A stretch of DNA of 62,384 nucleotides, the filler included, from Sphacelaria rigidula (Eukaryota): assembly GCA_964200075.2 (NCBI GenBank). It is 8 parts of 8 records of this genome, joined end to end, with 100 filler letters (N's around TTAATTAATTAA, not from the genome) between each part and the next. Parts side by side here need not be neighbours in the genome. Positions count along the whole stretch, not along the records: positions 1 to 7,711 come from CAXNAA020013711.1; 7 more parts are not named here. The stretch is one strand, 5' to 3'. Both the position numbers and the translations under genes were made by a program. The notes beneath the pieces were generated by a model. It did not search any database. It was not told the origin of the DNA and worked only from the letters and a program-made list of their open reading frames with translations. Of this stretch, positions 1 through 15,368 are shown in pieces. Every line of letters begins with the position of its first letter. Position 1 is the stretch's first letter.

Positions 1-284
1 GGGATGGTCTGCGCCGTCTCGCTCTTTACGTCCGTATACGTGTTGCAAAAAAAAAAACAGAGACCATTGACTGCTCACCACGCCGCTGGAAGCGGGCGGT
101 CCTCTCCGCTCCGAAATCCCCGAGCTCCGGCAAGCTCTCGGCATTCAATTCCTCCTCACTGTCTGACGCGCTACTATCTGGTTACCCCGACAATTGTGGG
201 GGAATTGGGGGCAGGCGTCGGCTGGCGATGAAGACCATGTCAGCGGCCATGCACCGTGTTATCGGGCGCCAATGGAAATCTGTA

Positions 285-552
285 CACGATTGAAAGTGAA
301 AAGTGATCAATCAGTCACTGAATCGTATCAGTTCCAAAATGCCACTCCACGAGGCCCGATGTTATTTCGGTGGTGGTTCGCCACTGAGGCCCTTGATATC
401 CCTGAGTAGGATATCGACATGCAGCTGCAAGCACACGCTAGTGATGGAGGCAGAAAAAAGGACACACAAAATGAAAAAATTGCCAAGTTTAAGCGTATGG
501 CCAAAGAAGGCACTCTCGATTCGCGCTCTCTTCTCAATCTCGCGAAAACATT
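285..552. mobile_element. Degraded copy of the ~300-bp TA-flanked MITE (same family as 16797-17096)
   Basis: Aligns by eye along its length with 16830-17091 (e.g. cgccactgaggcccttgatat.cctgagtaggat, cacacgctagtgatggaggca). The left TIR is truncated. Confidence 0.75.
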
Positions 553-619
553 CTTGGCCCCAATCGAACAGACAGGGTAAATCGGTAACTACCGTTGGAG
601 TTGCACACCCGTATAGCCG

Positions 620-3600
620 CACACCCTCCCCACGTAACCTGCACGCCACCAACCTACCCTACTTGCGACACATGCCCTGCACCTGAGTCCGATTCCTCTT
701 CGTCCGATCGCCAGTCAGTCGCTTGCCGATTCCAACCCCCTGAGTCGCTGCTGCCACCTGCGAAACGCACGCATTGGCATATTTGCTGCTCAGTCAATGT
801 CTCCGACATTTCGGCGCGATTGCAGTCCTACTTCACATTTGTAACCGGTGACGGCGAACAGACACTGATCCTCAACTTCAATACTTTCGCCGGGTTTTGT
901 CGTCGTGCCCACATTCCTCTACTCCACGTTCAAATGTTGCACATAGTACTGGCATGGCGATAGTCCTTCGCACGTGACGCAGCATGGTCTTGAAGCCCAT
1001 GTTGTACATCGCCGGCAGGAAATCGCATCCGGCCAGGAAGTACAAACCACGAATAACACCCCTTTCGCCGCGTCCGACAGCCACGCTGGCGCCACGCCCA
1101 CCGCTGCGGCAGCACCCGCTGCCCATTCCTCGCTATTGCATACGGCCTCGTACACTTTATTCACGAGGGTGAACTCCTCCGCTCCCTGTATTTTCTTATT
1201 CCTAACCTGAACATCCACCTTGTTGGTTTCCCTCCACGGTATTGCACCGATCGCCATAGCCAACAATACATGCATTACTTGATCCGTGTCTATGGACGTA
1301 ACTATCCACTTGCGCAGGCCACGAACGGTCGCGTACTTCTCGTGGTGCGCAATCATGTGAGTCGTGGCCAGCTCCCCCTCACCGATGTGGGCGCCAGGCA
1401 TACGCCTCAGGCCCTCATGCCCCCAAACCAGCGTATCAGGTGCATCGCCGGGGTGACTGGCGGCAGTTCCCCCCTGCCCCACTCCTGTGGATTCTGCGCC
1501 GCTGCCACCACCAGAGACGCTGCTGCCGCCCGCTGCATGTCGCGGAAGTGCCATATCGGCGGCGCTCCTCCAACCCCGTCCGGCCATCCCCGGCTCGGTA
1601 CGGCCGAAAACCGCTGCTCCAGGTAGGACGCAGGAGGCCAGGCCGGGCCGCACGCCGGTGGCCTCGCCGTTTGAATACCGCCGCCCGGGACAACCTGCCG
1701 AAAGGCCTAAAGGCACGTTCACGCTACGCCCGCGGAGCACTTGGGGCGTGGGGGCCAGGGCGGCGCCGTCATAAGCCAGCCCATGTATCAGAGTGGTTCC
1801 CACGATGCCCCCGCAGATGGGGGGGCGGAGGGGGGTTACACCCTTCGCAGGTGTAGCCCCTCTCATATCACCATAGCCTGGCGGGATGTTTTCCGAGTCG
1901 GGCGCTGCAATCATGACAGGATGTCTATATGCTAGCGACGGTTGTTGTGGGTCCGCTGGTGCAGCTGTCGGCGGAGTTGCTTCTGGCGTTGGGAGGACAG
2001 GGTGCACCGGACGAGGCCAAGGTATACCGGTGAAGATGAATGTCGCGTCCCCTCTCCGGCCTTTGCCGTCCCTGTGCCCGACGAAGTAGTCGTGGATGGC
2101 GCGGCAATATCGTCCCTGTTATTGTGCGCCCGGAGATATGCCTGAAAGTCACCACCGGTCGGGATTTCATCGGAAGAGGCGGGTCGAACACACCATGTGA
2201 ACTGGCGAGGCCTGCCTTTCCGCCGGCTTGTTCTGCAGCTTTAATCGGCGGCACGAGCAGCGAGTAGTCGTAGCACAAACCGACGAAAGTGGCCCCCGAA
2301 CGCCGAATACTCGGTAAGGATTTTATCCCTGAACTCCGGCAGCAGCGCCACCGCACCGGCATCGAGGATGCTTGATGGGGGTGTACGATGGAGTTCCGTC
2401 GCCAAGTCGACAACAGAAGCGTGGACCGAGTCATGCGGCGACGGTTGGACGGCATCCGCGCACTCGCCGAGCATAAATTGTCGTATTCCCTTTGACTTGT
2501 TCGCTTTGCGGCCGCCCCCGTCGCCGGCGTGCGCCATCGCCAGAGGTAACACCGCACCGAGGCTGTGCTTGAGTATCGCCAGTTCCTCCGCCGTTCGCAC
2601 GCGCGCACTGCTCGGGATATCGACCAGGATAGCGTAATATCCCTTGCTCGGGGAAAATGGTCTTCTTCAGCCGTCCTCCATGCGGACCCCCCTTTGGCAC
2701 CACCTTGAGAACCTCGTCCCACCTTTCTGACGATATTTTCTTCGCCGCCAACACTTTCTTCTGGTCCTCCGCGCTCGCCACCCTTAGGTTGAAGGAATTC
2801 AAGTTGTCTGCTCCATCCTCGGAGAAGACGGTGCACTTTCGCACGAATGGCAAGACCTTCTCTACCGCCTCCGCCCTGTCCCTGATTACTTCCGCCGTGG
2901 TGGCGCGCTCCTTCGGAGTTGGATACAGCTGGTCGTCCACTGCGTCCACGGCTGCTTGCAGGCTCTTGCAGATCGGAGCCAGCTTCCTTATAAAGCCGGG
3001 GGTGATTCTGCCGATCGCTGATTTCACCACCTTATTGGTCATCTCCTGGTACTCGTCGAGGGCGACGTTGTGATGTTCTCGCCCACCGAAACTGACAGAG
3101 AATAATGTCCCCGCCGCGCGAAAGTCCCCGTCCGTCATCCTTGTGACATAGGAGATGCGAGTTGCGCACAGACTCTGGTATCGCAGTTTCTGCGTGAGGG
3201 TGAAGATGGGCGCCGCCTCTCTCAGTGCGCAGTCCTCAGGGCGTAATCCCTAACCCATGTCCCCATCCGGAACCCCAGATATGCCGGGTAGTGATCCAGG
3301 AGGAACGGCAGCCAAAATATCAGGGTCACATGGTTGCAGGCCCGTTCCCGGAGCCACGGCACCACGTCTTCTCCCTCACGGCTGGCATCAACACCCTTCT
3401 ACGCCTCGTGTATCTCGATGATCACACATCACATGGCTTCGAACGTGACAGTGAGGAAGCGATGACTCCTCCGGTGTTTCTTCCCCGCCCCCGCGTGCCT
3501 GTCATCGCCACCGAGCAATTTCGCAATGCTCTCGATCCCTGCCCCCCAATACAACTCCAGCAGAGCCTGCCACAGATGGAGCATAAGATGTCACCCGCCA

Positions 3601-4628
3601 GAGTGGGGCAGAATGTTGCGCCATCTGGTGGGGTTCGAAGCCATGGCGTTCACCATGAAACTGTACGTCTCCTCATCCCCCTCGATCAAAACCACCCGGC
3701 CCTTCTCGCCCTCGGTGTGGAAAATCCACAGGATCCGTACCAGTGTCTTCTCGTTGTCAGCTTCGCACTTTGTCGAGCCAGACTGGACGAGGAGATTTTT
3801 CGACACGAGGTCGTGCCCCCCGTGATCCAACTTCACCAATTCGGCCTCCAGGCATGATCGCCTAGGGCCATATGTCTTCCGGTATCCAGGGCTCCGCGCT
3901 AACGTAGAAGCTATCAGGGTACTCCACGTCTACATATTTTTTCCGTGTTCGGCACGCTCCCGACCTCGCTTCAGCAAGTCGAGTGTCAGTTCTGCGATTT
4001 TCATCCACGAATCCTTGCTGCCCAAAGTAGCAGGTGCGTCCAGCGGGAGCCGGTGGTGATGCGCGGTGGCCCCTATGAATGAGCAGTGTTCCGCGGAGAT
4101 GTATTTAGCGACGGGGTCGCAGTCGTTGTTGTCGAATGCTGCTGACACGCCGATGTTGCGGTCAGCCGGGATGAGGTCCTCATCCTTCCTAGTCGCCACT
4201 ACATTCTCGTGCGTCCACCTCTGCTTGTCAGACATGCAAATCTTTAGCACCGACAGCAGGCGCGTAATCTTCTCCCCCGCCCCATGCGATTTCAAGGCCT
4301 GGGACAACTGCATGTAGTGCTCGGGCATGAAGGAGTCTCCAATAACCTTCTTCGCCATCATCATACCCAACATATAAGTGAACACGGCGTCATCAGAACA
4401 TTGATCGGCACCCGCATCGGTTTCCCGCGTGGCGGCGTCCAAGTTTATCCTGAACACCGAGGCGATGAACGTCTTGAGCTCAACTGGGAAGGTGTCACGG
4501 ACGTACCTCTTCACATCGGGAGTCCGCATGCCGGCGGCAGAGGCCTCACCTGTACTCAAGGGTGTTTGCGCCCATTTCGCACACAGGTACATGCTCGTGC
4601 GCAACATACCCGCCGCCGTCTTTATCAC
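620..4628 (-). mobile_element. Decayed Academ (AcademX-like) DNA transposon coding region: DDE transposase followed by XPG/PIN-H3TH nuclease
   Basis: Collinear minus-strand ORF pieces (3930-4628, 3591-3839, 2431-3138, 2241-2600, 919-2007, 878-1126) broken by stops and frameshifts. Transposase motifs in order: MPEHYMQLSQAL...LKICMS, AAFDNND, EGDEETY, P..GG*HLM (TGA at 3593-3591), GKKHRRSHRF...EA, PIFTLTQKLRYQSL..RISY..RM, DEYQEMTNKVVK. Nuclease motifs follow: PLAM..GDG..RKANKS, VVD, YDY...PIK..EQ, GEGE, SIDTD, FLAGCDFLP. A degenerate Cys-rich tail lies near 620-680. Termini and TIRs were not identified. Confidence 0.7.
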
Positions 4629-5572
4629 TTGAAATCAGTGTCTGTACTGTGAAAATGAACCCGTACCTATGGACCCACCGCCTTTTCGCCCGCAGCGTTA
4701 TTATTATTATCTATTATCATCATGTCCGTCACATTAGCCCGATCTCTCGAACCTGTGGTCACAGAGAGCAAGGAGCATACCACCCATGCCCATAAATCAA
4801 ACAACCCGCGGAGGAAGGCAAGAAACAAAACATCTACACGAAAAAGGGTACCTACACTACTATAGATCCGTTTAAGACCGATTGAGCCACAGGAGACTTA
4901 CTGGAATCCAAAAGTCCCCGCGTGCGATCTCTCCGACTACCTTGCCACGTACTGGTGTATACACAGTAGTAACAGCCTCACTATTATACTATGAAATAGC
5001 ACAGTATCGCCCCTATTGACTGTATTGACTGCTGGTATTGTTTCATACTCGTCGTGCCCGCCACCGATCGTGAACTCCGTGATATTCTGTGTACCTAGAC
5101 TGTTGCTACCGCACTACTGACTGTCATGTGAGTTTCCTCCGTGCGGTATGGCAGAAACCTTACTGCTGCACACTACACCGCTCAGCTGTTGTGACACTAC
5201 TACTATGTATACCAAGCAGCGGAGGGCTGAAGTAAGGGTTGATACGCCTGTCGTTTCGACCCCTATTATAGCAGTAGCTGCTGCGTGTGTGTGTGTGTGT
5301 TGTGTTGCCATCCCATCTATTCTGTACCTCGACGAGATTACGTGTTGGTTTACCGCAGGTAGCATAGACACAACATTCAAATGATGACCACCACCACCAT
5401 CTCCACGCAGGCTAGATGATGGCCTTGGATGTACAAACCCCCAGGAAATTCTCGTAGAATATATGGTGGGATTTTGAAGAAAAAACTTGTCTGAAAAAAG
5501 TCACCGGGAAAGTCGTCCGCCCGGAAAAAAAAACAGTAATTTTCTTCAGTCTACTAAGAAGCGGCCCAAGGG

Positions 5573-5664
5573 TTGACTCTTTGACCGCAAGGGTAGGTGA
5601 TCTGTTGAATCGGCGTCATTTTCCTTATTCAATAGATCACATACCCTCGCGGTCAAAGAGTTGA
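5573..5664. mobile_element. Short palindromic variant of the piggyBac-like MITE
   Basis: TIRs ctctttgaccgc...gcggtcaaagag, flanked by TTGA on both sides. Internal gtaggtgatctgttgaatcggc is shared with the other copies. Confidence 0.65.
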
Positions 5665-6356
5665 GTGGCGTGCAGTCAGAGCGTCGATTATTCCACTGGC
5701 TGTTTCTCAGATGTATTTTATCGACGCGTGGACCGAGGTGTTTTTGAAGAGCATTTTCTGTTTGACGAACGATTTGCTGTCTCTTCAACCTGCCAGAGTC
5801 ATCTTTGTCCGTCCATCTTTCGGCTTAAAGAATGAAATGTGTGTATCACGAATGGAAATTATTTCTTTTGTCACTGACCACCGTGTCCAAAGCAAGGCGG
5901 TCTTTACCCCCCAGATGGGCGCGAACAAGCGGTGCTTGACGCAAACTTTGTTTTTGTGAGACCATATTGCTGACGCTAACCCTTACTCCAACCAAAACTC
6001 GAGACAGACTGAGAAATCTTCGGGCATGATCCGTGCAAACCGCTCTCCCTAGGCAATGACTCTAAAATCGGCACCTGAGACGCCACTTATTGGACAACAC
6101 AAGTGCCGTGCACTGGGGTTGGAGCTGTGAACCCCGTTAAAAATCCAAATATGATGCTTCACACCAGCACCAAGTACATATTTAACCACGGTTTATTTCC
6201 ACGCAACTGGGATCAACTATATTGGTCCAAGCATTCGTATGTTTCGATTTGTATAGATGAGGGCGGGCGGCCGGGGGTTATTCCCACCTGCAACAGAGTT
6301 GCCCCTCGAAAGATATGTCGTCAGCCCAAAGTATACGTCCAGCACAAAACGGAGTT

Positions 6357-6460
6357 TTAACCTTTTAGACGGCGAGAGTAGGTCTCTGTTGAATCGGCAT
6401 CAATTTCACTTGAGAGAAGTATGCATGATCCAGATGGTCTATATCAGGGGTCCAAGGGTT
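6357..6460 (-). mobile_element. ~100-bp piggyBac-like MITE
   Basis: ttaa-ccttttagacggcg...gtccaagggtt; reverse complement of 6743-6848. Confidence 0.7.
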
Positions 6461-6742
6461 GGAGGATGTGTGTCGGCCACTTGTACACACTGTGCTGAGG
6501 CCGCTTCTTTTAGTCTGAAAAAAGACACTGACAAAAGTCGTTTTGGACAGTGTTCAGAGATTCTATGCAGAACACGACCTGGTAGGGCCGGTTTTCCATG
6601 AAATAACTCTGTAGAAACGGCGCGATTTGTTCGGAGAGCGAATGCTTTTTCAAATCTGTCGAAGAGAAACGGGCTTCTCCGGAAAAAATCACGGAGAAAA
6701 GGCGTCCGCCCCCGAACCTCTTCCAGTAACTTTTTTTCAAAC

Positions 6743-6848
6743 TTAACCCTTGGACCGCGAACGTAGTCCATCTGGACTCTGCCTACTTTTTTCAAGTGAA
6801 ATTGATGCCGACTCAACAGATGACCTGCTCTCGCTGTCCAAGGATTAA
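6743..6848 (+). mobile_element. ~100-bp piggyBac-like MITE
   Basis: TTAA-cccttggaccgcga...tcgctgtccaagga-TTAA: TIRs beginning CCCT with TTAA at both ends. Confidence 0.8.
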
Positions 6849-7644
6849 AGAAGCGGCCTTAAGGCATGTGCGTTATTATCCCGTAACTTGCGTGCACGAC
6901 CCCTTCTGCACGAATGGAGAATAGTTTAGTACTACATGTACAACATTGTGCTAACTTCGTCCTAGGAAAGACTCCTTGCGCAATGTTCTGATAAGGTCTT
7001 GCCCTCGCTGAAGTAGCTTCATTCGCCCTCTTGTGCAGGTTTTTTTTCTTCCCCTGTGCAAAATGAGTCCTGTACAAATGAGTACGCCCCCCCCCCCCCT
7101 GTGCAAAATGTCGGCCCGGTTGGGACATTATGAAGAAGCGAAAATAAGATGCAAAAAAATCCCCGTGCACAGGTGTAGGGTTCTATTATAGTTAAAGTAG
7201 TCCGTGCTGGTTTTGAGTCTCCTTCTTTCGTGTTTTTTTTCTTTTTTGCTTTGTGAAACACCACTCTAGGTTGTGTTAGCGAAAAAGCCAGAACAGGCCG
7301 CCATTAACAGCAACAACGGCAACATAAACGTTGCGCGGCGTCCCAACGTGGCCCAAGGATTGTCGGACGCGGAAGAACAGATACCCGGACGTCGGTGGAA
7401 TTATCAGCAAAAATTCGACCCCCAAATGCTCATCAAGGCGGTGGAGTGGGTGTCCTCCGTGTTCATGCTCCCGGTTGGAGAGTGCGAAAAGTAAGGAGTC
7501 GCTTATATTATCTTCTCTTGTATTGTGTTTCTCCAGTTTGCGATGTGTCATTTTTTTCAAGGGCAGGTCGAATAGAGTGTACTCCATTGCGCGGTATTTT
7601 GAAAGACGTACTTGAGGTACTCAAATTGGGGTAGAGTGTTAAGA

Positions 7645-7711
7645 GTGTGTATGTGTGTGTTGTCGTCCCATCTATTCTGGACGCCGGTTTACGCCTTTCG
7701 GTATATGTAGA
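7645..7711 (-). mobile_element. 3' tail of SINE family 1, cut by the contig end
   Basis: gtgttgtcgtcccatctattctggacgccggtttac matches 18560-18600. A smaller remnant lies at ~5285-5325. Confidence 0.7.
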
Positions 7712-7811
7712 NNNNNNNNNNNNNNNNNNNNNNNNNNNNNNNNNNNNNNNNNNNNTTAATTAATTAANNNNNNNNNNNNNNNNNNNNNNNNNNNNNNNNN
7801 NNNNNNNNNNN
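7712..7811. other. Artificial contig linker N44-TTAATTAATTAA-N44 (also 15523-15622, 23334-23433, 31145-31244, 38955-39054, 46765-46864, 54575-54674)
   Basis: Seven identical 100-nt spacers carrying six-frame stops. The segments between them are 7711, 7711, 7711, 7711, 7710, 7710, 7710 and 7710 bp. Confidence 0.98.
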
Positions 7812-7959
7812 CTCCTGCTAAGAGTGTTCGGCCCGAAGCCTACTGATTATCTTCCATTTGGATGACAGCCAACAATGAGTTGCTTTATTTAGTGGTATCG
7901 CAACTTCCAGAGACGGCCACGGCTTTTACACTGCCTCATGGGTGTCTAACCTAGATAGG

Positions 7960-9840
7960 CAGCAGGGGCAGACTAAAGAGTGAATGGATTTCTCAAGTAT
8001 GGGGGAGAGGGAATGATTGCCACGATGATTATGCTGTATAACTGGATCTGCGAAAATGAGTACACACCCAAGAGGTGGGGAAAAGGAGTAGTTGTCATGC
8101 TTTTAAAAGAAGGAGACAGGGCTGACCCAAGAAACTATAGAGGGATAACGCTACTAAGCACGGCAGGGAAAACATGCTGTAATATTCTGAACGATAGAGT
8201 AGGAACGATGCAAGAAAAGGACGAAGTAATCAGCGAGGAACAAGCAGGATTTAGACCACACTGTAGTTGCGTAAAACATGTGTACGCATGAGGGACGATT
8301 ATTCAGGGTAGGAAAGGCATCAGGCTGACAAGGTACTGTTTCTTTCTGGACGTGAGAAAGGCTCATGGCACAGTATGGAGAAATGGGTTACGGAAAACGT
8401 TGCGGGAATCTGGGATCAGAGGAAAGGTGTGGAGAACGGTGAAGATGACAGAATGTGCCAAAAATGATATGTTGCAAGACGGAGCAATATGGAAATATTT
8501 CGATATTTCACAAGGAGTTGCACAAGGATGTACGTCATCACCCACCGTTTCAAGGTATTTATTAAAGACCTGATAATAGCGATAGAAGCAGCAAATCAAG
8601 AAGTCAAGGTGGGTGGAGATATGGTATCAGGATCGATGTTCGCAAATGATTTTGTGGGGATTTCAGAAACACCAGAAGGACTACAGACACAGATAGACAA
8701 AAGGCTCTACAATACACTAGGAAACGGAGAGTGACAGCAAACGTCAACAAATGTGTGGCACTCGCGTGCAACGAAGGCAAGAAAAATCCGGTAGAGTTCA
8801 AATGGGAGTGGGGAGAAGAGGAACTGCCGATCGTAGACCAGTACACATATACCCTAGCGTAGAGATCTCAAGAAACTGTTCTTGGGATGCACACATGAAC
8901 AAAGTAATAGAAGAAGGTGAAAAGACAGGCAGGTTGAACGTGATTCTCAGAGACCCGCGCCTAGACACTAGAATCAAGAGACGAATCCTGATGAACGTGA
9001 TCGTACCAAAGCTGGAATAAGCAGGAGAAGTATGGGAGGGGAACGCGAAGTTGGTGGAGAGGTTGGAAACAGTAAAGATGGCAGTAGCTGAGAAAATACT
9101 TGGATGCTCGAAAACGACGAAAAATACAGCTTTGAGAGCAGTGTTGGGAATGTACTCACAAGACAAAGAGACATGAGGACAATGAGATGGTAATATAGCG
9201 TAAAGAACGTGCAGAGAAAGAGATTGCCAGCTATAGTGAATAGGGCTGTATGGAGGAAAAGTACGAACGGGCAGGCTTGAATAAGGTAGGATAAAGAAGT
9301 CGAGAAACTGTGGAAGGAGATAGGAGGAAACCAAGACGAAATACTGTCCATAGGTGAAGGCGCGGCATACAAGACGAAGGTAAAAGAAATAAAAATAAAA
9401 AAGGAAAAAGGAGCTCACACGCAAATTAGACGAGGAAGAACGCTTGAAGATATACGGGGGGTTGAGAGAGGGGATCGGGATGAAAACATCTCTGCATGGC
9501 CCAATGGACGCTGCGAAAAGAAAGAGATATACAAGTAGTCGTGTGGCGGAGGAAGTAGATGCATAGAATTGCCCCTGTGGCAGAGCAATAGAGAGCAGAG
9601 CTTATATAGTGGCAGAATGAGAGCTATACAAGGAGGAACGGGACGTGCTAGAGAGGGAAAGGAGGGACGTGGACGAAGGTGGAATTAAATCGCTCGATGC
9701 ATTAGACAATAGGGAGAAAAAAATGGCTATACGAGGAAATAAATGGTGGCCACAGACGGCGAATCAGGGCGGGGATAAGCGATGTAAAAGGTTCTTGTGT
9801 ACTGTAGTGTATGCAAGAAATGTCGTGAAGACCTAAATTT
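7960..9840 (+). mobile_element. Non-LTR retrotransposon (LINE) ORF2 reverse transcriptase, 5'-truncated pseudogene
   Basis: RT motifs NYRGITLLS..GK, ISEEQAGFRP, FLDVRKAHGTVWR, GVAQGCTSSP and MFANDFVG (YADD-like), spread over frameshifted ORFs. A C-terminal CPCG..IES zinc-knuckle remnant lies near 9570-9620. Many stops. Confidence 0.92.
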
Positions 9841-10522
9841 TGGAGGTGTCTCTAATAGGAGCAGGAACGGTGCTCCGTCTTTGGATGTGCCTCTATTAAG
9901 TCTAGGAACGGTGCTCCGTCTCCAGGACTCATCATCTGCCTAGCCCTGTTTCCGGGCATGAAGCGACGGAGAAGAGCCCAGAAGGCAGTTTTTCAACATG
10001 AGTTTTCTCCAAACCCATAAGAACTGGTCTTAGTTCGTGTCACGGCAAGACAGGGAAATATCGAGCAAAAGAAAGGGAGCAAAACAAGCACGTTGATAGA
10101 TCGCTGCGATACCCCTCCCAACTCCCTATCCCACACAAAAAAATGGAGAAAAATCGGCGGCAGGTTAATATGACAGTACGGCCGTAAGCAGTGCACCGGG
10201 GCAGTGTGGATGTCATGTGCGCAACAGGCCTTGTGGGGTTCTCCTCGAACTGATCAGATATATCGTTCGTTTCTGACTGACTACAGTAGATGAGCCGCAT
10301 CTGTTCCCACGACATGCTTCTCGTTTTTCATAATTGTGCATGAGTATGCTTTTCACGCTAGACATTTTCCACCTACTACGCCATCATGTTGCAGAGGCCG
10401 TTTTTTTTTCGTTTTTTCATTCAGTCTACTCTGTCCGTTCCACCTTTGTGTTCCTCTTTACTTTTTTTCAGCTTGTGTTTTGGTTTGTGTTTTATCTCGG
10501 GCACGTCTATCATGTGACTAAT

Positions 10523-10779: not shown

Positions 10780-13700
10780 GTATTGATCACTTGCTGCCGG
10801 GTGGAAGAGGTGCAGGGGGAAGAGAGGGGGAGGAGGCTGAGGAGCTCAAGGCCGCCTGTTTCATGAGCCTGGTGTCCTACCTCGCCTCTGCCCCTGAGGT
10901 GCTGCGGGTGTCGCCTCTTCACCAACCGAAGCTTCATAACGCTGTCGCAGCGTCGGTGATTCAGGCTGGTACTGACGACACCTCCCAGAAGCCGCTGACG
11001 GCGGCGGGCTTGGATGGCACGGGCGAGGTTATCCAGGTGAAGATTATTAGTAGGAAAGTTTAGGCACAGCTGGGTGGGGTTCAGAGGTGAGGGCCACATC
11101 TGTCAGCAGAGGTATCTGCTCGGTTTTCCGGCGGTGCCGAAGATTTATCCGCCCAGATGAACCGAACTGTGTCGTCGGGCAGTTTTTGCACGATATGCAC
11201 ACATCTTGATTTGTTGGTGTGTTATGTGTTGTCATCCTATCTATTCTGGACGCCAGTTTACACATTCCGGTACACGTGGACGTGTCAGCCGAGGTCACAC
11301 AGGTGAAAGGTCAACACAGGAGTTTTCCTACCTTTCTTGTTTTTTGTTTGTTTAGCAGCCCTACCTGCCTTATGTGGTGTTTGCATTTCTCTTTTTTATC
11401 GAGATATGACTTCAGCGGCCACATTCTCTTGTCGACCATGAAAATCGAACTCTGTGTACCCACGACATAGTTGCTCTCCACTGTTGAGAATGATGTGAGA
11501 GAACCTCCCAGAGGAATCCTCTACGCGTCGCAGTCAACGAAGTACTCCTCTAAGGGCCCTTGTTGACAGGGCTATTTTCTTCGAGAATTTTCCCGACTTT
11601 TTCGTGGAAACCCCCCCCTCCCCCGAAAATGCGACAGCCGATTTCTCAACCAGGTCAAGGGATAGAACTTAAGAGTGATTGCACATTACTCGGAAAACCT
11701 AGCATTGGATTATTTTCGGCGTTTTGGTTTCGGAAAGTCGAAACGTTTCCGGAAGAGTGGAAAACGTCTGGGAAAAAGCTCCTTGAATGAGGACCCTGAT
11801 ATACGCATTCGGGGATTTCTACTCCACTGGCATTATTGGACACGTCACAATCTAGTTTAATTCGTGTGCAATAACGAGATACTCTACTGGTGAAGATACG
11901 GTCGGCTATCCTACACCTCTACGTAAAGGTGTTGATGCCCCGCGAAGCTTTTCTTGCTTGTACAACGCTGAACGTGAGGTGATCCTCCCGCAGGCGAACA
12001 TTACAAACTGTGAGATTTGTCATTGTTTCAGTAACACAATGTATATCCTCCTCGGAAAAAAGTTGGCTCTACAAGTGTACCCCTACCGTAGAACCACTGT
12101 TCAGTCCTGTGGCAGGTTAGGGGTTTCCCCGGGTTACGGACACTTTTTCGGTTAAGGACAGCCCTACGGTCTTGACTAAATGTATGCAGTATTACGGTGT
12201 ATTACGACAGTATTTAACTGCGCTGTTTATTTCACTGCGCAACATATTTCCAGCGGTATCTACATTTGATCAAGCAACAAGGGACAAACTGAAACTATAT
12301 TTTCGTTTGTTGTGGATTACCTGGCCGCTCAAGGCTTGGGGTTGTCGTGGACGTGACTGTACGGTGGTGCGCCACTCTGTGCCGAGTACCTCTAGGCGAA
12401 TTAGCATGTTACACGTTGCTTCACCCGCCGACAGATCGTTGATGCCGGGCTTGACGCAGCAAAACTATACTCTCTCGATGAGAGCGGCAGAGAAGCTCAA
12501 CGCGGCCACTTAACTTTTGTCTAACGTACGCCGCCGCACCCGCCGACAGATCGTGGACTCCGGGCTCGACGAAACACATTGTTACTTTGTCGATGAGGGC
12601 GGAGAAGAAGTTGAACACGGCTACTTGTTTGACGAAATCGGCGGCTATGGACCAAGTTCAAGCGAGATTGTTGCGATACAGTCCGGTGGCTACTTTCCAT
12701 CTGATCTCAGTCGCCGCAAGGTGAGGTATAGAGAGGACGCTGTTCGTATTCTCACAAATGCTACAAACTTTTCATACCACGCCAGCTGTACACGATGGGC
12801 AAACCTGCTCGAGATCATGGTGTAAAATATTCCCTGACACATGGAATTTAGCGAGGGACGCGACCTTCCGTTGTCGGATGGCCAGTATCTTCGTTTCGTT
12901 GTCGTACTATTGCCAGAGTCACTTCTGCACTTTGCTCCCCCACCTTTGGACGTGGGGTCGCTGTAGAGCGCGCTCTTCTCTAGATTTGCATAGTTGATTT
13001 TTTTCCATATGGGCGCTCAAAGTCAAACGGAAGCGAAGCACACGGGACTGGAATACCACCAGTACGTTGTCTAGGAAATGGGAGGAAGCGCCGTGTACGT
13101 TGAGTGTAGCTGGCACTTGAACTTTGGTTGATCAACCGAGCACGGGTTTGTCACTGGACATCGTGCCCCCCACCGCAGCTCCTCATCTGCTCTCCCCTCT
13201 CATGTACCGCCCTTCGGTGTTCGGCTCATATAGATCGTCCAGTACATCCGCTTACTCGCACCGGACTCCCCAGGAGATGCCTCCTACTTTTTCACGGGTA
13301 ACGGTGGGGGCCCTTACCCGTTGCTGCCGTCTTATGGTTTCGGCGAGGACACGGAGGACGGCCATGGTACACACACGGCTGGATCGGCAGCGGGCGCTCC
13401 CTTGAGTGACCCCGTTGTACCGGACACGTGCACGGGCACGGACGTTCTTGGTTGCATCGGAGGTTGTCTCGACTTAACCTATGCGGCAAGCCTCGTTGGG
13501 AACCTGCTGCCCGATTTCGACACATGGTGTCCGCAGTACGAGTGCGATGGTTACGGTGCCGATACCGAGCCGTGTCTCGACGCGGATGTCTCTGCTACGC
13601 TCACCGAGAATGCGGGGATGGCCCCGGGAGCAAAGTTGACCATTTTTGACGCGTCCAACGATGGCGAAAGTGTTTTGGCAACGCTTGCGTTAAACGGATT

Positions 13701-15368
13701 GTGGGAAGCAACCGAGGACACGGGTTGCATGCTGCATTCCAACTCTTGGGGAAGTGACAGCTATTGCACAATGACATTCGAGGGGACGCAGTATGACCAA
13801 TACATGTACGAGGTGAGTGATTTGTGTACGGCTGGACTAAAGCTCGCCCGTCCGAGGAAGTACCCGCCGTAGATTGTGCTCTCACTTCACCGCACAAAAT
13901 GTTACCGACAGTGTATCGAGTCATGTGTCTTGTTGTCTCTGGCAGAGTCGATAGTGACTACAGTAGCCGAGATGTGGTGGACCCCCAAAAGACTGGAATG
14001 TTTGTGATCGCCAATCAATTGGGCGTGACCAACTTCTAACATTGAGTCCAGATCGCTGTATTCAGCACCCACCGCTTCTTGAGACTCCCTTAAGACCATC
14101 CTCTCATGCGATATAGCGAGATCTCCAGGTGGGAAGTATGTGTATCACGGGGTAGGCAAGCATGCCTCCTGCAATCCGCGGTGCGCTTCGTGTGACCGGC
14201 CTTGCGACATGCCACCTTTTGTAATCGCCCTCTTGCTACACCGTCCACGCGTACTCCTGATTTTCTGTGACGGGCCCTCGCTTTTCTCACGGCAGAACCC
14301 CGAGCATCTACTGTTCTTTTCAGCTGGAAACGACGGCGAACAAAAATACAATACCAGTCGCAACAGCATATGCACCATTGGCAGCGTGGGACTCCCCAAA
14401 AACGTTTTGACGGTCGGGGCGTCCTCGTCGGGTACAACACGTCTCACCGGGACAGACCTGAACGGGGAGCCCTATGGATATGGCAGCACCACAGATGCCG
14501 CTGACATCGACACCGTAACTTATTTCAGTTCCTACGGTCTCACTGCAGACGACCGCGTCAAGCCTGACGTCGTGGCCCCTGGAGATCAAGTAAGTTGCTC
14601 ACCCTCCCCACTTTTCCCGTGCTAAGAATACGCATATTGCTCTTTCCACTCATTGAGATACGACTTGCATGTGTCAGCGTTTCCCACATGTCGAGTTGTG
14701 GAGTTCGCTTCGACAGTTTCATCAAATGTTGAGTATCTGCCCGAGTCTGCTGAACTCGCGGCACCCAGGGGTAAGGCGAATAGTTTCTCTACCGAGCTAT
14801 CGGGCACCGTCTGCGCTGAATCCGCCTAAAACGTAGGGGACCACCTCACCCCAGCAGCATTTCCTTATGCGTGCGCTCCATTTCGCCCATACAGGTGCTA
14901 TCTGCTGGAAGTGATGGAACCGACGACCAATCCTGCCAACTGTATGCTACTCAGGGCACGTCCATGTCCTGCCCCGTCGTGGCCGGAGCCGCAGCAATGG
15001 TAACATTTGTCACTTTGACGTGCTCGTTCTCTCTTGTGAAGGTCACGTCTTGCTGACGAGCACAGCGGAGCACTCGATATGCTGTGTGTCGCCCTGTCTC
15101 AGTAGTGCAATCAGCGTTATGCGAATACAGTCTACGGTAGCCGAAAGGCTGCGGCAATGCATGTGCCCGGAGCTCGTCAGCCGCTTCGTTTCGAAAACGT
15201 CCCACCTCCCTTTCGGCGCACGGCTTGAATCCAAACCCCGACGAACAGATAAGGCAGTACTTCAAGGACGAGACCTTCTACGTGAACGATTTGAATTCTC
15301 GGGGGCTCTGCGGTGCCTCGACTGCTTTCGCTTGTGAAGCGTTTGCACCCTATGCAGCCACGGTCAAG
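10780..15368 (+). CDS. Subtilisin-like serine peptidase (S8, Kp43/TagC-like), partial; exons 10780-11036, 12550-12720, 13234-13812, 14296-14589, 14895-14999, 15249-15368
   Basis: GT-AG splice sites join in frame. Catalytic motifs are intact: GLDGTGEVIQ|IVDSGLD (Asp), GHGTHTAGSAAG (His), HSNSWG, FSAGN (oxyanion Asn), KNVLTVGA, RVKPDVVAPG, GTSMSCPVVAGAAAM|IRQYF (Ser). The 5' and 3' exons are missing. Confidence 0.93.
11215..11510 (-). mobile_element. SINE family 1 copy in a subtilase intron
   Basis: Collinear similarity to 18555-18840 (tattctggacgcc, ggtcacacagg, gtcgaccat, gtacccacgaca, tgtgagag). Confidence 0.7.

Follow-up and report, generated by a model that had tools for sequence, protein, structure and literature searches.

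A dead internal fragment of a probable Academ-superfamily DNA transposon in the brown alga Sphacelaria rigidula

We analysed a 62,384-nucleotide (nt) stretch of DNA from the brown alga Sphacelaria rigidula (assembly GCA_964200075.2; hereafter the window, made of eight parts joined end to end) and identified, at positions 935–4652 of its minus strand, what is probably a dead internal fragment, truncated at both ends, of a multi-copy DNA transposon of the Academ superfamily that resembles the AcademX lineage. We put the probability of this reading at roughly 0.78. The fragment is the remnant of a gene in which a transposase with a predicted Asp-Asp-Glu (DDE) core is followed by a putative 5'-nuclease. 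We file the element under Academ because it combines the AcademX domain set with a match to the catalytic blocks of the published Academ profile, and the brown-algal family to which it belongs is probably a member of that superfamily.

Academ is among the least studied of the DNA transposon superfamilies; the superfamily and its AcademX lineage are reportedly treated by Kapitonov and Jurka (2010) and by Kojima (2020). According to the two papers on which we draw here and below, AcademX elements encode a transposase together with a 5'-nuclease (PMC10045372), and Academ hosts are animals and fungi (Table 1 of PMC5751038). The first of these papers also gives target-site duplications (TSDs) of 9–10 bp for AcademH and of 3–4 bp for AcademX, a difference it ties to the encoded helicase or nuclease.

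A decayed transposase–nuclease reading frame

A single decayed reading frame occupies 935–4652 on the minus strand and carries five in-frame stops and at least five frameshifts. Stop-to-stop open reading frames (ORFs) and the raw sequence reveal open pieces in shifting frames from about 900 to 4650 on this strand. The first-pass annotation had described a decayed frame with four ordered motifs, and the minus strand contains all four, in the order it gave: AFDNND (4122–4139), GDEETY (3663–3680), HSGG*H (3588–3605, the asterisk marking a stop at 3591–3593) and LDEYQEMTNK (3031–3060). Nuclease-like motifs follow downstream of the transposase motifs, namely VVDLATELHR (2385–2414), IGEGELATTH (1357–1386), SIDTDQVM (1273–1296) and AGCDFLPAMY (1004–1033). 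The parts of the fragment, defined largely by translated searches (tblastn) with family proteins (numbered P0001 onwards), are as follows.

935–4652, minus strand: whole decayed internal fragment, transposase plus 5'-nuclease; tblastn colinearity with P0049, P0040, P0001, P0003 and P0054–P0059.
3228–4652, minus strand: transposase part 1, frame -1, with AFDNND (candidate first Asp), GDEETY (second Asp), HSGG*H and GAGIES (3528–3545); 84% identity to P0003 (379 aa), 52% to P0001 (468 aa).
3227–3228, minus strand: frameshift site; one extra base in other copies, tblastn frame change at 3228.
2674–3228, minus strand: transposase part 2, frame -3, with LDEYQEMTNK as the D-x3-E block; 55% identity to P0001 over 168 aa.
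2100–2594, minus strand: linker and N-terminal part of the nuclease, with VVDLATELHR, NRD (2112–2120) and the stop at 2241–2243; tblastn.
1477–2099, minus strand: G/P/A-rich, poorly conserved spacer within the nuclease module; one short match only.
944–1476, minus strand: nuclease catalytic core, with IGEGELATTH, SIDTDQVM, AGCDFLPAMY and a frameshift at 1044/1045; tblastn with P0054–P0059.

With intact relatives, tblastn E-values range from 1e-83 to 0.0 over 4652–2674 and from 1e-22 to 1e-35 over 1476–944, and as judged by these alignments the homology of the decayed frame is beyond chance. The aligned path runs through frame -1 (4652–3228), frame -3 (3228–2674), frames -1, -2 and -3 (2594–2023), frame -3 (1476–1045) and frame -2 (1045–944). 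Its frame changes lie near 3228, in the interval 2674–2594, near 2293, 2177 and 2099, and at 1045. The linker segment at 2100–2594 matches residues 773–945 of P0049 as well as P0054–P0059, in frames -2, -1 and -3. The sole match within the spacer is to residues 92–109 of P0055, at 2076–2023, and a variable low-complexity insert is found at the same position in relatives.

The in-frame stops lie at 3930–3932, 3591–3593, 3429–3431, 3399–3401 and 2241–2243. At the four that are covered by the alignment the relatives carry Trp or Glu; the stop at 3591–3593, a TGA, corresponds to the Trp of GGWH in P0003 and P0001. Introns were considered in place of frameshifts and are ruled out, because the relatives continue uninterrupted across the sites and the differences that other copies show there amount to single bases.

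Homology to the family ends at 4652 on one side and at 935–944 on the other. An extent of 620–4628 had been given in the first-pass annotation; its larger part is confirmed, as 935/944–4652, and no homology to relatives was detected by tblastn between 620 and 935. Nowhere in the 62-kb window did tblastn find a match to the N-terminal ~400 residues of the family, as represented by the long relatives P0040 and P0007, or to the C-terminal ~210 residues of the proteins of the nuclease module, the nine-Cys cluster described below included. Because both family ends are unmatched and homology breaks off at these limits, we regard the window copy as an internal fragment that has neither terminus. The same annotation had called the copy dead, which agrees with its five in-frame stops, its frameshifts, at least five in number, and its truncation at both ends; judged by its sequence, it cannot move or make protein. 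The GC content is 58% in 1–4000 and 45–50% in 4001–10000.

Relatives in brown algae and the layout of the family gene

A 234-aa piece of the frame (3930–4634) was searched with phmmer against 1.84 billion representative proteins. It matched 37 of them at E ≤ 1e-3, 16 at E ≤ 1e-10 and 3 at E ≤ 1e-30, the best match being CAM9747415.1 of S. rigidula itself. By tblastn, the window shares 84% identity with this S. rigidula protein (P0003) along 379 aa and 52–55% with P0001, and it is colinear, at about 40% identity, with residues 125–1185 of the 1,480-aa Ectocarpus siliculosus protein CBJ31386.1 (P0049). Word-index searches returned the intact 836-aa P0001, the 896-aa P0002 from Ectocarpus sp. 12, and 13 proteins of the C-terminal module. 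Named members were present in four of the ten clusters checked, all of them brown algae (S. rigidula and three Ectocarpus species), and the three named entries among the 13 nuclease-region matches are brown algal too (Pylaiella littoralis and two Ectocarpus entries). A stramenopile lineage had been suggested from the sequence, and it is borne out in that every named relative comes from Sphacelaria, Ectocarpus or Pylaiella. The sequencing runs in which the window occurs bear the labels of one organism and of an 'algae metagenome'. Contamination of animal or fungal origin is not indicated, and the brown-algal host sets the family apart from the Academ hosts of Table 1 of PMC5751038.

From overlapping partial proteins we estimate that the protein of intact relatives measures about 1,700–1,800 aa and is encoded by one long gene. 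Its parts are, in order, a Cys-rich and winged-helix front, the DDE transposase, the 5'-nuclease and a terminal cluster of nine Cys. The front domain and the terminal cluster occur in relatives and are absent from the window copy; accordingly, the Cys-rich finger that had been expected of the element exists in the family and is missing from the fragment itself. The nine invariant Cys, at residues 473–509 of P0056, are spaced C-x-C-x9-C-x3-C-x-C-x6-C-x4-C-x-C-x3-C. The P0056 cluster has no Pfam match at E ≤ 1, and for seven nuclease-module proteins scanned at that threshold the sole Pfam match was a weak metallothionein-like one, on the cluster of one of them. In the ESM Atlas its lead is a tesmin/TSO1-like CXC (TCR) cluster (score 0.83, 14% share).

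The source name of CBJ31386.1, 'similar to solute carrier family 35, member F4', is probably wrong, because residues 125–1185 of the protein are colinear with the transposase–nuclease family. This protein reads LGEIQEM where its relatives have LDExQEM; the conserved Asp is lost.

The published Academ profile

The RNase-H domains of Academ are stated to have no Pfam match, and a dedicated profile was built for them from the Yuan and Wessler alignment and Repbase (PMC5751038; Muszewska et al. 2017). This hidden Markov model (HMM), RNase_H_Academ in Supplementary File 1 of that paper, has 465 nodes and derives from 44 sequences. We scored 170 of the 465 nodes as partial HMMs in four blocks (nodes 15–39, 92–116, 168–244 and 423–465), with hand-copied values that were cut to two decimals and then renormalised, and with a calibration taken from a rebuild of block-emitted sequences. 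Because of the two-decimal transcription and the borrowed calibration, the resulting E-values are rough.

The block of nodes 168–244 carries most of the signal. It scored 11.2–27.6 bits on 17 of the 66 proteins compared, the next best protein reaching 2.5 bits; 5,117 controls made by shuffling or reversing the 17 stayed at or below 8.8 bits. On our reading, the stretch between GDEETY and GGWH is present in these 17 and in no other protein scored, and the nuclease-module proteins served as internal negatives. The window frame, with X at its stops, scored 12.8 bits and aligned at GDEETY, PHSGGXH and GAGIE, and two other frames scored nothing. In the block of nodes 423–465 the near-invariant D450-x3-E454 of the profile aligned to LDExQEM of the family; the window piece scored 9.5 bits there, within the top of the null range (null maxima 11.0 and 8.6). 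When the two blocks were joined colinearly, the same 17 proteins scored 15.4–40.0 bits, as compared with a control maximum of 10.2 bits. The corresponding motifs, family first and profile second, are GDEETY and GDQplY, W-x-v-P-H-P-G-G-W-H and W-L-V-P-f-l-G-f-F-H, GAGIE and GsGLe, and LDEyQEM and lDEalEq. The family thus resembles Academ and AcademX in its block of second Asp and His and in its D-x3-E block. Two of the four scored blocks match it; the other two, nodes 15–39 and 92–116, cover the candidate first-Asp regions of the profile. The Academ identity put forward in the first-pass annotation therefore holds for the two catalytic blocks and not for the two N-terminal ones.

A further likeness lies in what both lack. 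The hAT/P/MuDR/Kolobok/Dada group has as its signature a C/DxxH motif in the interval from the second Asp to the Glu (PMC9587614). The only invariant His motif of the brown-algal family in that interval is P-H-x-G-G-W-H-x-x-L-H, with Gly three positions before the His, and the G-G-W-H of the family corresponds to G-f-F-H in the scored part of the Academ profile, which likewise has no such signature.

Predicted fold of the transposase half

An AlphaFold model of P0001, computed with 19 aligned relatives (mean predicted local distance difference test, pLDDT, 59.6), shows around AFDND, EGDEETY and LDESQEM the order strand-strand-strand-helix-strand-helix, which we read as RNase-H-like. A long helical stretch lies ahead of the catalytic-block Glu, and an all-helical insertion separates the second Asp from the Glu. 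In a structure search, residues 338–714 matched the P element transposase (6p5a_A; Z 6.3, root-mean-square deviation 5.0, 246 residues aligned), Hermes (8edg_A; Z 4.9, 254 aligned) and two lentiviral integrase cores (Z 5.0 and 4.7), and residues 39–166 gave winged-helix matches, among them TFIIIC tauB at Z 7.2. The top Foldseek row for the model was again Hermes, at a non-significant E of 0.08; neither the transposase nor the nuclease model had a PDB match at E ≤ 1e-3 in Foldseek. These models are supportive, not decisive, of a predicted RNase-H-like DDE fold in the front half. The DDE core claimed at the outset gains support both from this likeness to P element, Hermes and retroviral integrases and from the two profile blocks that score above their shuffled controls.

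P element and hAT transposases such as Hermes share with the model an RNase-H-like core with a large helical insertion; unlike them, the brown-algal family has no Pfam match to either. We know of no P element or hAT transposase that carries a fused 5'-nuclease.

The closest Pfam family is DUF6589 (PF20231), matched by 10 of 15 family proteins at E ≤ 0.02. Three of the 15 reach its curated cut-off of 27 bits (P0003 with 28.5, P0009 with 27.7 and P0011 with 27.1 bits), seven score below it and five have no match; the window piece scores weakly and below threshold (11.6 bits, E = 0.11). The correspondence places GDEETY-GGWH and what follows at positions ~80–225 of DUF6589 and the DEYQEM region at ~341–401. 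Because most members fall below the curated cut-off, we regard the brown-algal group as a distant DUF6589 branch. Of the 30 named clusters that lie closest in the ESM Atlas, 24 carry DUF6589; these belong to Basidiomycota, Mollusca, Cnidaria and Mucoromycota. A CxC7 Pfam match of a window piece (E = 0.086) is sub-threshold and was judged to be chance, and a phmmer search of P0049 against PDB sequences returned no nuclease or transposase at E ≤ 10.

Predicted fold of the nuclease half

For the nuclease we modelled P0056 (mean pLDDT 57; residues 190–450 mostly 60–90). In a search independent of Foldseek, 13 of the 16 top rows were 5'-nucleases of the FEN/XRN superfamily: XRN1 (Z 8.3, 7.9, 7.5 and 7.5), Rat1 (6.6), EXO1 (5.6), T5 exonuclease (4.2), XPG (6tus_A, 4.1), FEN1 from three organisms (4.0, 4.0 and 3.8), PLEX1 (4.0) and GEN1 (3.6). 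Weak Foldseek rows for the same model (E 0.2–0.8) were XRN1, XRN2 and Rat1. The nearest solved structures are therefore XRN1 and Rat1, not XPG.

Seven acidic residues of the module (D24, D76, E164, E166, D194, D196 and D295 in P0056) are invariant in six of six and eight of eight aligned sequences, within the motifs YDD, NRD, GEGE, DTD and CDF, and are candidate metal ligands. In both fold and the arrangement of these residues, D, D, ExE, DxD, D, the C-terminal module resembles XRN1/Rat1 and FEN1/EXO1/XPG/GEN1. IGEGELATTH, SIDTDQVM and AGCDFLPAMY of the window correspond to E164/E166, D194/D196 and D295; the fragment thus keeps GEGE, DTD and CDF, in broken frames, and has lost the Cys cluster. 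GEGE, DTD and CDFLP resemble PGEGEHK, LDADLI and GNDFLP, which we take to be the XRN motifs, more than the motifs of XPG and FEN1. The module differs from XRN and FEN nucleases in having no sequence-level match in Pfam or the PDB, in its fusion to a transposase, in its variable low-complexity insert and in its C-terminal nine-Cys cluster.

Taken together, the back half folds, in the P0056 model, as a 5'-nuclease of the FEN/XPG/XRN (PIN-like) type in the same frame after the transposase, where a nuclease had been claimed. As to the XPG domain of Academ elements, the predicted fold is that of a 5'-nuclease and XPG is among the matches (Z 4.1), there is no XPG Pfam match, and XRN1 and Rat1 are nearer. 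With AcademX, as described in PMC10045372, the family shares an accessory 5'-nuclease encoded together with the transposase; it is unlike AcademX in that its nuclease is without an XPG Pfam match and structurally nearest to XRN1/Rat1.

Copy number, mobility and flanks

Contigs from sequencing runs of the source organism were aligned to the window at ≥80% likeness, over a compared stretch of 7 kb that includes the high-copy flanks; runs X1 and X3 are guessed to be DNA. Summed contig depth over 703–4680 is 334–969 in X1 and 295–762 in X3, as against 28–33 in X1 (28–41 in X1 and X3 together) over the unique stretch 5851–6318, and most of the contigs are 80–95% alike. At 90% identity, a single protein cluster brings together 11 members from at least nine contigs. 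The family is multi-copy in the source organism, with, we infer, roughly ten or more copies.

Other copies show a G inserted behind 1044, a C behind 2099, one base fewer at 2293 and a C behind 3227, the last in five contigs of X1, four of X3, one of X6 and two of X7. Because these indel states fall on frameshift sites of the window, the other copies are taken to be intact at 1044, 2099, 2293 and 3227. The first-pass guess that younger copies may exist is thereby borne out, since the family is multi-copy and other copies are free of four of the window's frameshifts.

Within and near 935–4652 the only inverted-repeat pair is 1019–1040/4272–4293 (22 nt, 77%), which lies inside the coding region; because the copy is truncated, the missing bracket of terminal inverted repeats (TIRs) is uninformative. 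The element's relatives are also covered by contigs of X6 and X7, two runs whose RNA nature is a guess, and this coverage is not counted as expression. A contig of 1,410 nt that occurs in both of these runs covers 3662–3808 and 4002–4551 with a replaced stretch of 195 letters between them. Its depth, 336 in X6 and 280 in X7, is about 20 times that of other family contigs there, and the contig could stem from a transcript or from a variant copy that is strongly represented.

Outside the source organism, pattern searches of JGI metagenome contigs with two alignments (A4 and A5) gave 249 and 503 matches, none of which was confirmed. Among 2.9 million viral contigs, none of 189 candidates was confirmed for the transposase alignment and none of 49 for the nuclease alignment.

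The fragment is flanked by very-high-copy short repeats, at 235–468 (depth ~2e5) and at 4681–5148 (1.4e5 and 3.9e4), where unique sequence has a depth of ~30; hundreds of contigs start at position 380. Two inverted repeats farther along resemble foldback elements or miniature inverted-repeat transposable elements, one at 5576–5661 (35-nt arms, 91%, 16 nt apart) and one at 6385–6820 (76-nt arms, 83%, 284 nt apart); at each of them depth is very high and the contigs contain many joints between opposite strands.

Weighing the Academ assignment

Several observations weigh against the assignment. Both models are mediocre (mean pLDDT 57 for P0056 and 60 for P0001), and their best Z scores, 8.3 and 6.3, lie within the range that the search tool calls common. 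XPG_N, XPG_I and XRN_N of Pfam are unmatched in P0049 at E ≤ 10 and in seven nuclease proteins at E ≤ 1, and PDB sequences, searched with a profile built from the nuclease family, yielded no nuclease at E ≤ 10. On the side of the Academ profile, 295 of the 465 nodes lay outside the scoring, the values scored were hand-transcribed and the E-values are rough; the controls were shuffled or reversed sequences and the nuclease-module proteins, with no other DDE superfamilies among them. Nodes 423–465 taken alone are marginal, with family scores of 8–14.8 bits and null scores of up to 11.0. Among the N-terminal blocks, which the family thus does not share with the scored part of the profile, nodes 15–39 reached at most 1.4 bits (shuffled 4.3) and nodes 92–116 at most 0.5 bits (shuffled 5.9), AFDNND remaining unaligned. 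Summed contig depth is not a copy number, and no TIRs or TSDs were seen around this copy, which has neither of its ends.

These points bear on the question of whether the family belongs inside Academ or beside it. It could represent a separate DDE lineage of the DUF6589 type, a sister of Academ, whose nuclease was acquired independently from an XRN-like source and is not the XPG of AcademX. Such a lineage would fit the match of two of the four scored profile blocks and no more, the proximity of the nuclease to XRN1 and Rat1 (Z 8.3–6.6) as compared with XPG (Z 4.1), the failure to find an XPG Pfam match and the fact that the literature searched yielded no published link between DUF6589 and Academ. 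Yet the two blocks that do match are the catalytic ones, they are colinear, and jointly they reach 40 bits at best, where no control exceeds 10.2; a transposase with a 5'-nuclease is the domain set given for AcademX in PMC10045372, and the DUF6589 neighbours come from fungi and animals, where Academ is reported according to Table 1 of PMC5751038 and the title of Kojima (2020). We therefore consider a sister lineage unlikely and prefer the assignment to Academ itself.

Readings in which the fragment is not a transposon of its own fare worse. A host gene family might have arisen by domestication of such a transposon and left the fragment as a pseudogene, as could be argued from the intact ORFs annotated as proteins in several brown algae and from the unseen TIRs and TSDs, but a domesticated family would not be expected to comprise many diverged copies on contigs mostly 80–95% alike, at 10–30 times the depth of unique flank, with an 11-member cluster of 90% identity spread over at least nine contigs, nor to leave a copy truncated at both ends and riddled with stops amid very-high-copy repeats; we hold this to be very improbable. 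An origin in an integrated giant virus (phaeovirus-like) or another large mobile element carrying a transposase and a FEN-like nuclease as passengers is, in our estimate, more improbable still. The nearest named Atlas clusters of the nuclease, XPG_I and Pox_G5 of Nucleocytoviricota (0.80–0.81), offer a lead and nothing further in that direction, whereas the best Atlas neighbours (0.93–0.95) are eukaryotic clusters, the 189 and 49 candidates among the viral contigs all went unconfirmed, and no virus-like gene adjoins the fragment, whose flanks are short high-copy repeats.

A possible mechanism and its implications

As an Academ element, an intact copy would be expected to move by cut-and-paste. 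Cleavage and joining of the transposon ends would fall to the DDE domain, with the Asp residues of AFDNND and GDEETY and the Glu of LDEYQEM at work, and the fused metal-dependent 5'-nuclease would process the non-transferred strand, or flaps that remain where the element left or entered. Recognition of the element ends would be the task of the front domain and the Cys cluster.

It is conceivable, though we advance it tentatively and think it on balance doubtful, that an Academ lineage is still active in brown algae and that its accessory enzyme resembles an XRN-type 5'-3' exonuclease and not the classical XPG. Recent activity would be consistent with the intact long ORFs in several genera, with near-identical copies within one data set and with family contigs in the runs guessed to be RNA. 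If such a lineage exists, its accessory enzyme differs from the one currently described for AcademX, and if it is active, it would give work on brown algae a native DNA transposon with which to carry out insertional mutagenesis.

The window copy is functionless, ordinary genomic debris, and its value is that of a pointer to the family. If the assignment is right, the intact genes in Sphacelaria, Ectocarpus and Pylaiella would extend Academ to stramenopiles, and DUF6589 would acquire a likely function as the probable core of an Academ-type transposase. Among brown-algal gene models, at least CBJ31386.1 is flagged as probably misnamed. A nuclease closer to XRN1 than to XPG also raises the question of how the accessory nuclease aids transposition. 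In the literature searched, a scope that placed Repbase, Dfam and supplementary tables of transposable elements outside it, no paper reports Academ in brown algae or stramenopiles, and two candidate papers mention the superfamily in passing; such elements may have been annotated earlier.

Other features of the window

A run of N at 7712–7811 is bordered by the palindromic TTAATTAAT. The segment 8001–10000 has a GC skew of 0.316 and an AT skew of 0.298, a strong strand asymmetry unlike the rest of the window. An open frame of 267 aa at 8798–9601 on the minus strand has no Pfam match. On the plus strand, the open pieces 13234–13872 and 14083–14625 match consecutive parts of Peptidase_S8, the subtilase family (E = 5e-7 and 4e-10), and presumably belong to an intron-split host protease gene.

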